From assembly GCA_038872135.1 (NCBI GenBank), contig JAVZGN010000011.1, positions 1 through 33,927 of the forward strand: DNA of 33,927 nucleotides, written 5' to 3'. This stretch comes from Candidatus Hadarchaeales archaeon. GTDB taxonomy: Archaea > Hadarchaeota > Hadarchaeia > Hadarchaeales > Hadarchaeaceae. Below, piece by piece: positions 2 to 29,867 of this stretch (position 1 is its first letter; each line of letters begins with the position of its first letter). The notes beneath the pieces were generated by a model. That model had not been told where the DNA came from. It saw only the letters and a program-made list of their open reading frames with translations, and searched no databases. The position numbers and the translations under genes were made by a program.

Positions 2-826
2 TTCAAAAAAATAATAGACGAAGCAAAATATTTCGCTCCAGTTCTATGGTTGCATGTTTTTGGAGAACCACTGATGAATCCAGAAATTTTTAGAATGATA
101 AAATATTGTAAGGAGAGGGGCATTAGAAATGTAGGGCTTTCCACAAATATAACGTTACTTGATCGGGAGAAATCAGCCAAGTTGCTTGATTCAGGGTTAG
201 ATATTATTGTGCTTTCGCTAGATGGCGCCACAAGAGAAACATATGCAGCAATAAGACGGGGCGGTGATTTTGAGAAAGCGGAAAATAATGTTAAAACGTT
301 CCTTGAAATGAAAGAGAAAAAAGGTAGCAAGATTCATGTGATTCTTTCAATCATCAGAATGAAAGAAACCCAAAAGGAAATTGCCGCATTCAAAAAAAGG
401 TGGAACTCCCCCATGATCGACGAAATATGGGTTAAAGAATTCATCACGTGGGGCGGGCAACTAGATTTGAGCGATATCGCGCCTCAAAATCGAAACTCGC
501 AATCAATGAAACAAAGATATCCATGTCGAAAATTCTGGGAAAGCGTAGTTATTTCATCGAATGGCAAAGTTCTTCCATGTTGTTATGATTACGACGAAAA
601 GCTTATTCTTGGAGATATCACAAAACAAACCCTCTCAGAGATTTGGAATGGTGAAATACTTCAGGAAATAAGAAAAGCTCAATGCAACGGAAATTTCGAC
701 AATCCACTCTGTAAGAATTGCCAGGAATGGAGCGGATTTCCAAAAGATGATAAGTTTATCATAAGTGTGGTAAAAAGAGGATTTTTACGTGTGTTGCATC
801 TTCAGGCTCCAAGTGAAAGAATTTAA
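2..826 (+). CDS. Radical SAM protein with C-terminal SPASM domain (5' truncated by window edge)
   Basis: Frame open from base 2 (FKKIIDEAKY...). Motifs FGEPL, STN and LSLDG; SPASM-like C..W...G.V.PCC.D...LG...EIWN...CxxC. The CxxxCxxC motif would lie upstream of the window. Confidence 0.88.
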   Translation, partial: FKKIIDEAKYFAPVLWLHVFGEPLMNPEIFRMIKYCKERGIRNVGLSTNITLLDREKSAKLLDSGLDIIVLSLDGATRETYAAIRRGGDFEKAENNVKTFLEMKEKKGSKIHVILSIIRMKETQKEIAAFKKRWNSPMIDEIWVKEFITWGGQLDLSDIAPQNRNSQSMKQRYPCRKFWESVVISSNGKVLPCCYDYDEKLILGDITKQTLSEIWNGEILQEIRKAQCNGNFDNPLCKNCQEWSGFPKDDKFIISVVKRGFLRVLHLQAPSERI

Positions 827-14295: not shown

Positions 14296-14333
14296 GGTTC
14301 ACCAACAATTCTCTCCCGGCGATAAAAAATAGG

Positions 14334-14425
14334 TGGGCCCGGAGGGAGTTGAACCCTCGATCTCTACCTTGTAAGGGTAGCGTTTGTTAGGCCTGGAAGC
14401 CTCTTAACCGCTAGACTACGGGCCC
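14334..14425 (-). tRNA. tRNA-Val(TAC) with 19-nt non-canonical intron at 23/24 (intron 14384-14402)
   Basis: Acceptor GGGCCCG/CGGGCCC-A, anticodon arm CTACC-CTTACAA-GGTAG, T arm GAGGG-TTCAACT-CCCTC. D stem GTCT/AGAC is restored only after removing a BHB-flanked insert. Confidence 0.93.
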
Positions 14426-28677: not shown

Positions 28678-29245
28678 ACTTTCTGATGACCTTCAGAGAT
28701 TGCGCGAGCTCCTTCACAAGTTTTCTTTCGCTCAGCTTTCCGTGAGCTGCTAAAACAGCGGCAACGATCAGGGCAACGAGATAAACGAGGGTGGGATCCG
28801 GGAGAAATCCCACGATGCCTGAAAGGGCAATACTCCAGAAGATGCTTGAAACAACTGCTCCAGCTGTCACTGCCGGGAAAATGGCCGAGGTTTTCACGTT
28901 CAAAACTGAGGCGAGAAGAGCTGCCCAAGAAACGCCGAAGAGGAGGGTGAAAAAGAAGACTGCAACACCGAGACCAACACCCCTCATCCTCTCCTCAAAC
29001 TCTCTGAACTTCTTCTCCACTGTGACCAGCAGCTTTTTCTCCCACCCGCGGCCGACTATCCTCACAAACCTCAGCGCCTCATACCTCAGAACTCTGAATA
29101 TCAGGAACCAGATGGGAACAAGGAGGAGGTGAAAGAGAGTCACGGTGAGGGTTGTTTCCAGCGGAGACATTCCATTTGCCAAAGCATAGGAGGCTCCGGC
29201 CACTGGGCCTAGGATAAATGTTATCGCAAACAGGATGTGCAGCAT
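28667..29245 (-). CDS. Membrane protein, small multidrug-export-like
   Basis: Start ATG 29245 (the longer ORF runs through the tRNA); about 5 TM helices. Family call is tentative. Confidence 0.65.
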   Translation of the reverse strand: MLHILFAITFILGPVAGASYALANGMSPLETTLTVTLFHLLLVPIWFLIFRVLRYEALRFVRIVGRGWEKKLLVTVEKKFREFEERMRGVGLGVAVFFFTLLFGVSWAALLASVLNVKTSAIFPAVTAGAVVSSIFWSIALSGIVGFLPDPTLVYLVALIVAAVLAAHGKLSERKLVKELAQSLKVIRKFKR

Positions 29246-29280
29246 CAAGAAAAGAGCCCATTCAAGGAAAAAAACTTTTG

Positions 29281-29398
29281 TGGTAGCGGGGGGAGGACTT
29301 GAACCTCCGACCTCCGGGTTATGAGCCCGGCGGGCACTCCACGCTGCCCTACCCTTATAGGCCAAAAGGCTCGCTACGGAAGGGTAGCTCTCCCCGCT
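29281..29398 (-). tRNA. Initiator tRNA-Met(CAT) interrupted in the acceptor stem (4/5); best BHB intron 29355-29371, duplicated 5' end at 29392-29398
   Basis: A1:U72 pair, three G-C pairs in the anticodon stem (CCGGG-CTCATAA-CCCGG), CCCCGCT-ACCA 3' end. The 5' AGCG is separated from GGGTAGGGCAG by an insert. Confidence 0.9.
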
Positions 29399-29453
29399 AC
29401 CAACCTTTACCTCGGGGGGAGAAAATATAGGTTTTGTGTTACATATTTTTGGG

Positions 29454-29867
29454 ATGAAAATGGTGTTGAAAATAAGGAAAATGGAGCTGGATGAAATCTT
29501 TAGGCATTCTGAAGCCTGCTATCCTTTTGAAGCCTGTGGAATTCTGATAGGGAGGAAAACCGGAAAGGAAAAAGTTGTTGAAAAGGTGATTTTAGCAAAA
29601 AATGTCCTTAGCTCCCCAGTGGAATATGAGGTGGATGCCGAGAGCCTGTTTAAAGCCTTTGAGCTCGCTGAGAGAAATGGACTGGAAGTTCTGGGGTTTT
29701 TCCACAGCCATCCCCATCATGAGCCCTTCTGGTCGAGCATCGATGAGGAAAGAAGCAAGTACTGGGTAGACCATTCCTTTCTGATAGTCTCCCCGGCGCT
29801 GAGAAGATTTAAAAGCTATGAAAAGAGGGAGTCTGGAACGGTTGAGGAAGAACTCAGATTAATGTAG
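29454..29867 (+). CDS. JAMM/MPN+ (Mov34) metalloprotease, desampylase/Mec-like
   Basis: YPFEACGILIG and FHSHP......S..D JAMM motif. Confidence 0.9.
   Translation: MKMVLKIRKMELDEIFRHSEACYPFEACGILIGRKTGKEKVVEKVILAKNVLSSPVEYEVDAESLFKAFELAERNGLEVLGFFHSHPHHEPFWSSIDEERSKYWVDHSFLIVSPALRRFKSYEKRESGTVEEELRLM

Follow-up and report, generated by a model that had tools for sequence, protein, structure and literature searches.

The 33,927-nt window analyzed here (the whole of contig JAVZGN010000011.1, positions 1 to 33,927) is contig C11 of the assembly of a hot-spring archaeon of the order Hadarchaeales (GCA_038872135.1, here G000; 1.08 Mb in 34 contigs, 50% G+C, 91% complete). One protein encoded in the window has its closest named relatives in Hadarchaeota/Hadesarchaea assemblies, at 61–62% identity. 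Its minus strand carries an initiator tRNA-Met gene in which the 5′ strand of the acceptor stem is interrupted after position 4 by a 17-nt intron, and a full copy of that same strand stands upstream in the leader. An earlier reading of this stretch (hereafter the original prediction) had drawn attention to both features, and the minus strand of 29281–29430 matches its transcription letter for letter. We describe the locus, its relatives and a second tRNA gene of similar construction, and we weigh what the leader copy may do.

In the direction of transcription, all on the minus strand, the locus begins with a TATA-like box (29423–29430), the putative promoter, which ends 24 nt before the A of the first AGCGGGG. 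TGGT (29399–29402), the predicted transcription start region, complements A73-C74-C75-A76 and leads directly into the first copy AGCGGGG (29392–29398), which we read as a surrogate, or spare, 5′ acceptor strand on the strength of its complementarity, predicted folds and conservation. A 14-nt spacer, AGAGCUACCCUUCC (29378–29391), follows; its last 7 nt, CCCUUCC, form the 5′ strand of the outer helix of the splicing motif. The leader ends with GT (29376–29377, positions −2 and −1). Exon 1, AGCG (29372–29375), holds tRNA positions 1–4, the intron occupies 29355–29371, and exon 2 (29281–29354), recognized by ARAGORN and Rfam, begins GGGUAGGGC and supplies tRNA positions 5–76 including an encoded CCA. 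The 3′ acceptor strand CCCCGCU plus ACCA (29281–29291) pairs with the real 5′ strand once the tRNA is mature; in the precursor its predicted partner is the first copy. A T run at 29268–29274 is a likely terminator.

Archaeal initiator tRNAs are marked by a CAU anticodon, three G:C pairs at 29–31:39–41 and an A1:U72 pair. Removal of 29355–29371 in silico yields a sequence that ARAGORN calls as tRNA-Met(cat) and whose minimum-free-energy fold is a cloverleaf. The anticodon arm of this product, CCGGG-CUCAUAA-CCCGG, carries the CAU anticodon and pairs G29–G31 with C39–C41, and the spliced 5′ strand AGCGGGG pairs with CCCCGCU to give A1:U72; together these features identify the product as an initiator, as the original prediction had claimed for a gene interrupted at 4/5. 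The A1:U72 pair is also mentioned in PMC8450103. In the unspliced sequence, ARAGORN and Rfam detect the 3′ portion alone and miss exon 1, with the Rfam match covering 29289–29354 (model positions 5–66, 44.2 bits). ARAGORN finds 46 tRNA genes in the genome, the only other CAU gene among its calls being an elongator with a canonical intron, and no second initiator-type locus was found in the 91%-complete assembly.

Processing factors are encoded as well: a single splicing endonuclease (EndA) gene with one PF01974 match (115.5 bits, contig C14), an RtcB ligase (595.7 bits) and an RNase P RNA (162 bits). All parts of the tRNA gene lie within 122 nt behind a single TATA box, and what is repeated upstream is the 5′ strand, whereas a permuted gene would have its 3′ half there. 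Split (trans-spliced) and circularly permuted readings were rejected on these grounds.

The intron is defined by a bulge-helix-bulge (BHB), taken here as a 4-bp helix with a 3-nt bulge at either end, on opposite strands, each cleaved after its second base. The 5′ strand of the central helix, GUAG (positions −2, −1, A1 and G2; 29374–29377), pairs with CUAU in the intron, 29357–29360 being its partner. C3, G4 and the first intron base make up the 5′ bulge CG^A. The intron also provides the inner hairpin GCC-UUUU-GGC, with a 3-bp helix, and contributes both A residues of the 3′ bulge AA^G. The outer helix, CCCUUCC/GGUAGGG, is paired at 6 of 7 positions. The motif and its flanking helices h and h′ are thus present, excision in silico restores a canonical tRNA, and the genome encodes EndA and a ligase, which places the insert among BHB introns. 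The original prediction also held that the motif requires leader bases, and it does: the central helix takes in −2 and −1, the outer helix −3 to −9. If RNase P cut at −1/+1 ahead of splicing, the central helix would be severed and the motif lost, and splicing is accordingly expected, from the modeled structure, to precede 5′ trimming.

Relatives were used to judge conservation. The locus was searched against 61 relatives and matched in 49, and initiator genes could be classified in 42 genomes (L013, cut by a contig end, L027, unparsed, and L126–L131, with no initiator 3′ end seen, were left out). The 4/5 design occurs in eight of the 42 (G000, G040, G035, G029, G013, G025, G005 and G014), which represent five genera of two families; conservation on this scale speaks against the earlier suggestion of an intron-gain intermediate, and the companion idea of a gate on translation initiation found no support. 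All eight genes pair the central helix GUAG/CUA(U/C) at 4/4 positions and share the 5′ bulge CG^A; their 3′ bulge reads either AA^G or AC^G. Inner helices are 2–4 bp long and differ in sequence (GCC/GGC, ACC/GGU, GCGC/GCGC and others), and the outer helix is paired at 4–7 of 7 positions, being weak in genus g11. Standard pairs fill 95.2% of the 105 aligned helix cells, versus 29–49% when the partners are slid, and compensatory two-sided changes occur at two pairs; the ortholog covariation that had been proposed as a check is present in modest form. A pattern scan of metagenome contigs returned five further instances of the 4/5 intron, with both the BHB and the first copy kept in 5/5, some of them probably from the same species as the classified genomes.

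The position of the first copy agrees with the original observation that it lies where a tRNA 5′ end would normally be. Counted on the sequence, 24 nt separate it from the TATA box, compared with 23–25 nt to +1 in the three other tRNA genes of the window. In same-genus pairs, moreover, the placement of the first copy relative to the promoter equals that of +1 in genes without the copy. Since this spacing matches ordinary tRNA 5′ ends, the first copy is most likely transcribed. Among the 46 tRNA genes called by ARAGORN, such an upstream copy stands solely at the initiator gene. It is present in 22 of the 42 classified initiator genes; in 14 genomes beyond those with the 4/5 intron, the copy is followed by a 7–11-nt spacer and then by an uninterrupted AGCGGGG.

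TGGT plus the first copy complements the 3′ end CCCCGCUACCA (29281–29291) at 11 of 11 positions, and complementarity is 9–11 of 11 in all 21 parsed genes. GGUAGCG is retained in 22/22 copy-bearing initiator genes, one compensated change excepted, while the spacer ranges from 7 to 16 nt. L120 and L122 show a double change, with TGAT in the leader against AUCA at the 3′ end in place of TGGT against ACCA, and the pairing is kept. The first copy varies at positions 5–7 among relatives (AGCGAGG, AGCGGGA, AGCGGGU) and the second copy is always perfect, which marks the second as the mature strand. Both the unconstrained fold of the precursor (−63.6 kcal/mol, z = −4.06) and the BHB-constrained minimum-free-energy fold pair the first copy with the 3′ end, and both have a tRNA-like shape in which the D arm is replaced by the intron-bearing arm. 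These folds and the TGAT/AUCA change uphold the earlier proposal of possible pairing between the upstream copy and the 3′ acceptor strand. The spacer contains GCUACC, complementary to GGUAGC of the first copy.

A short BLAST search of the genome with leader plus intron turned up no other copy; apart from matching itself, the query hit only its 11-nt complement at the 3′ end. Inspection by eye of the leader hairpin loop showed no K-turn or C/D-box motif; and leader and trailer form no BHB, the trailer being the T run. Separately, many tRNA genes of G000 carry TGG(T) immediately before +1, about 24 nt after the TATA box, where it complements N73-CCA. Very short leaders with TGG(T) would lengthen the acceptor helix by 3–4 bp, and the motif may merely reflect a start-site preference.

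The distribution of the copy follows that of introns in or beside the acceptor strand. Among the 22 copy-bearing initiator genes, eight have the 4/5 intron, 13 have a BHB intron at 10/11 whose central helix uses G5–G7, and one (L017) has neither; a BHB intron that engages the acceptor strand is thus found in 21/22 genes with the copy versus 0/20 without it.

A second tRNA in the same genome repeats the arrangement. A T-arm scan revealed a tRNA-Asn(GUU) gene on contig C3 (locus L133, C3:33150–33480; gene at about 68–227 of L133, minus strand). ARAGORN overlooks it entirely, and Rfam matches it only from model position 9. Its leader carries TGGT and the copy GCCGGGA (217–223 of L133, minus strand), then one spacer base, followed by the real strand GCCGGGGU (208–215, minus strand) and a 21-nt BHB intron at 8/9 (187–207, minus strand) whose central helix pairs C3–G6 with CCCG. 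Across the order, the spare copy is present in 13/13 tRNA-Asn genes with the 8/9 intron versus 0/7 intron-less genes, and in 12 of the 13 it matches the real strand exactly, with nine different 4-nt flanks. When 47 tRNA genes of G000 were scanned, the spare copy appeared only in the initiator and tRNA-Asn, the two with acceptor-strand introns. The original prediction had called acceptor-stem introns rare and the arrangement unfamiliar. The first part was overstated, with 3/4 introns in print (PMC4090602) and a similar tRNA-Asn in the same genome; the second stands, in that the spare strand is undescribed in the literature searched.

The anticodon-loop intron of this tRNA-Asn gene (about 95–150 of L133, minus strand) is long and has motifs resembling C, D′ and D boxes. 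Its region is matched in 60 of 65 genomes of the order, and Rfam gives a faint C/D-box match (sR41, E = 0.96). A haloarchaeal tRNA-Trp intron carries a methylation guide, and by analogy the tRNA-Asn intron may be an intron-borne methylation guide as well.

Folding models were used to estimate what the copy contributes to the splicing motif, with P(BHB) defined as the share of the partition function in which central helix and bulges form together with two flanking pairs. For tRNA-Asn with the 8/9 intron, removing the copy lowered P(BHB) by 10^3 to 10^7 in 13/13 genes at both 37 and 65 °C, and a shuffled copy reached the natural P(BHB) in only 0–2 of 12 shuffles. For initiator genes with the 10/11 intron, removal lowered P(BHB) by about 20-fold to 10^5 in 13/13 genes. 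With the 4/5 intron, where the unspliced acceptor stem is already broken, the outcome was mixed, as set out below. Overall, the models lend strong support to a surrogate-strand role for tRNA-Asn and the 10/11 intron and weak support for the 4/5 intron.

We consider it reasonably probable, with real room for doubt, that the window holds the single initiator tRNA-Met gene of this small archaeal genome, with a 17-nt BHB intron at 4/5, and that the leader copy is a surrogate acceptor strand. The spare strand probably holds the tail of the tRNA while the real strand forms the splice signal. Transcription would begin at the GGU ahead of the first AGCGGGG, about 24 nt past the TATA box, so that the leader measures about 26 nt. 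The first copy and GGU would occupy the 3′ acceptor strand and ACCA in the precursor, and the split real 5′ strand, the intron and leader positions −1 to −9 could then form the BHB arm. EndA would cut this arm at CG^A and AA^G, and RtcB would ligate AGCG to GGGUAGGGC. The restored real strand would then displace the spare copy, possibly aided by pairing of the spacer GCUACC with that copy, and RNase P would take off the whole leader last, with splicing before 5′ trimming.

More tentatively, and with doubt slightly outweighing belief, we suggest that the copy represents an undescribed cis-acting helper in archaeal pre-tRNAs and that at this gene it acts as a three-state switch enforcing splicing before 5′ trimming. 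The spare strand would occupy the 3′ end while the BHB forms; after splicing, the spacer GCUACC would capture the spare strand; and the real strand would then take the 3′ end, upon which RNase P would cut. For the class we propose the term leader-encoded surrogate acceptor strand: the copy, its complementarity, its conservation and its association with acceptor-strand introns (21/22 versus 0/20 for the initiator, 13/13 versus 0/7 for tRNA-Asn) are found here, and its transcription is predicted from the TATA spacing.

Several observations weigh against a surrogate role. In the window gene P(BHB) is about 0.001, and a competing register, CUACCCUU/AAGGGUAG, is that of the unconstrained minimum-free-energy fold and is 3.9 kcal/mol better. 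Across the eight 4/5 genes, keeping the copy changes P(BHB) by 0.4 to 27 times at 37 °C (higher in 6/8), and 1–16 of 20 shuffled leaders do as well. The shuffle control also discriminates poorly for the 10/11 intron, with 0–11 of 12 shuffled leaders reaching the natural P(BHB), because G-rich shuffles still pair with CCCC of the 3′ strand. The covariation score of the BHB alignment was reached in 35 of 500 shuffles. RNA sequencing runs matched to the locus contained at most 7% of the sampled words (two words) and came from seawater and bird samples. Since end trimming precedes splicing in Methanopyrus (PMC3695527), the proposed order would be an exception. Finally, the comparative counts come from related genomes, in which no more than four genera (initiator) and two (tRNA-Asn) contain both states, and 10 of the 30 tRNA-Asn loci from the order could not be parsed by pattern.

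The association itself invites a different explanation, in which the 4/5 intron is real and the first copy is functionless, a scar of tandem duplication or of mobile-element integration and deletion that RNase P removes with the leader. In one published account of how tRNA genes become disrupted, a 5′ tRNA fragment stays behind upstream of the new intron-bearing gene (PMC3293823). Copy and intron lie within 60 nt of each other, so both could be lost together through replacement by a cDNA of the mature tRNA; linked joint gain and joint loss would yield the same association, which could thus stem from physical linkage. The mixed thermodynamic result for 4/5 genes fits a scar, as does L017, which keeps the copy with no acceptor-strand intron. 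Set against this are the conservation of the copy across two to four families while flanks and spacer vary, the covariation of TGAT with AUCA, and the large effect of the copy in silico on the BHB of tRNA-Asn and of 10/11 genes. We regard a scar as unlikely, while granting it serious weight.

A related possibility is that the first copy serves mainly in timing or quality control, blocking RNase P, 3′ processing or aminoacylation until the intron is removed. The 11-bp helix takes in ACCA, bacterial RNase P is impeded when a leader pairs with the 3′ RCCA (PMC9433436), and early cleavage at −1/+1 would ruin the BHB. As noted, however, TGG(T) before +1 is common in ordinary tRNA genes of this genome, which makes the pairing alone unspecial, and blocking would leave the restriction of the copy to acceptor-strand introns unexplained. 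The idea overlaps with a surrogate strand and is compatible with it; as the principal role of the copy we find it quite unlikely.

The original prediction had also raised the option that the first copy is an alternative donor, that is, a true 5′ exon followed by a 40-nt intron, perhaps with both donors in use. Its normal 5′-end distance from the promoter, the retention of GUAGCG in all first copies and the identical spliced product would suit such a donor. However, the first-copy BHB lacks an inner or outer helix and is 10^5 to 10^14 times less probable than the second-copy BHB in 8/8 genes, the first copy degenerates at positions 5–7, and 14 relatives have the copy with no 3′ splice site downstream. 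In tRNA-Asn the analogous splice would turn position 8 into A or G in 11 of 13 genes, with U8 kept only in L134 and L153. We therefore abandon this option as highly improbable.

Two further constructions were tried and set aside. In relatives with the copy and no 4/5 intron, a search by hand for a canonical BHB that uses the first copy as donor, or that excises the 18–23-nt repeat unit, found none, with all junction rotations of L017 tried. A TGGT/ACCA helix that lets EndA make the mature 5′ end fits some genes and fails in L120, L122 and L025.

The physical reality of the duplication was examined in sequencing runs. Contigs from the probable source run cover 29200–29309 and 29342–29520 without a difference. 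Runs X2, X3 and X10 belong to other studies, and their contigs run through the intron and join the tRNA body to the first copy: one contig from X2 spans 29312–29412 with five differences, and contigs from X3 and X10 span 29327–29394 with four differences and two 1-nt gaps. No contig among the four DNA runs bridges 29309–29342, where the conserved tRNA core collapses. The earlier concern about an assembly artefact can be put to rest, as the contigs from other runs, seven other genomes and five metagenome contigs share the architecture. That the locus is a pseudogene or artefact, with the working initiator gene in the unassembled 9% of the genome, is hardly credible given this recurrence, the perfectly conserved exons and a BHB maintained by compensatory changes, even though the assembly is 91% complete and two same-genus genomes have intact intron-less initiator genes.

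Those two genes, L005 and L007, belong to the genus of the window and have neither intron nor leader copy; over the exon 2 region they are 99% identical to the window gene, with a difference at position 9. Two species of genus g12 have wholly different sets of initiator introns behind a homologous promoter. These differences within genera point to fast intron turnover in the initiator gene. Relative to intact genes, the initiator genes of L018, L020 and L022 (genus g11) and of L113 seemingly have five interruptions, at 4/5, at two sites around the anticodon loop, in the variable region and in the T loop; the published maxima consulted (PMC4033280, PMC8450103) are up to three introns per archaeal tRNA gene. 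A second initiator anticodon-arm match in G042 (L131, contig C14:6396–7208) has no initiator 3′ end nearby and is possibly a second, heavily interrupted or partial copy. Elsewhere in the window, 14332–14425 (minus strand) is a tRNA gene with a 19-nt insert, which ARAGORN calls Val(tac), placing an intron at 32; the Rfam match extends over the whole model.

Introns at non-canonical sites of archaeal tRNA genes have been reported (PMC4090602, PMC4033280, PMC8450103), including those at 3/4 in Thermoproteales (Sugahara 2008, as cited in PMC4090602). For Hadesarchaea, tRNA gene disruption and an alpha4 EndA with an extra loop were noted (PMC5829648). The intron at 4/5 resembles the non-canonical introns of PMC4090602: it is short and defined by a BHB, can stand in an acceptor stem, relies on EndA and a ligase, and occurs in a lineage rich in interrupted tRNA genes. 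It differs from the 3/4 introns described there in its position in the initiator, in the use of leader bases in both central and outer helices, and in the conserved spare strand. As in the split tRNAs of Nanoarchaeum equitans and others (PMC4033280, PMC4090602), the BHB sits at a boundary of leader and exon and needs sequence from outside the tRNA; unlike them, the gene gives a single transcript with a cis intron and has no half genes or complementary leader/trailer pair.

Other systems share single elements with the leader copy. In the bacterial RCCA anti-determinant (PMC9433436), the leader likewise lengthens the acceptor helix through the discriminator and CCA; here, in an archaeon, it would replace the whole 5′ acceptor strand (11 bp), and archaeal RNase P may be affected likewise. 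The permuted initiator tRNA of Thermofilum pendens (PMC3218864) is also truncated by gene finders, with a promoter that seems too far upstream and extra tRNA-derived letters. There, however, the upstream piece is a real 3′ half and the RNA is circularized, in contrast to the discarded 5′-strand duplicate proposed here. In the mobile-element model for Caldiarchaeum (PMC3293823), a 5′ fragment also lies upstream of an intron-bearing copy, suggesting a possible origin by duplication. That fragment is at least 1.8 kb away with an element between, whereas the copy described here is 16 nt away, conserved and complementary to the 3′ end, with no element. As far as we searched, the acceptor-stem BHB intron is of a known kind and the spare acceptor strand in the leader is new; a leader copy of the acceptor strand was undescribed in the literature covered, which took in the available parts of these papers without supplements or the primary papers on 3/4 introns.

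One consequence is practical: standard tRNA finders truncate such genes, and the spare copy can misplace the annotated 5′ end. If the surrogate role is correct, the spare strand would explain how the acceptor stem, the most stable and conserved helix of tRNA, tolerates an intron, and introns would be able to settle in or beside that stem. It would also mean that splicing comes before RNase P in these archaea, the opposite of the order measured in Methanopyrus, and would add a cis-acting RNA folding aid to archaeal tRNA processing.

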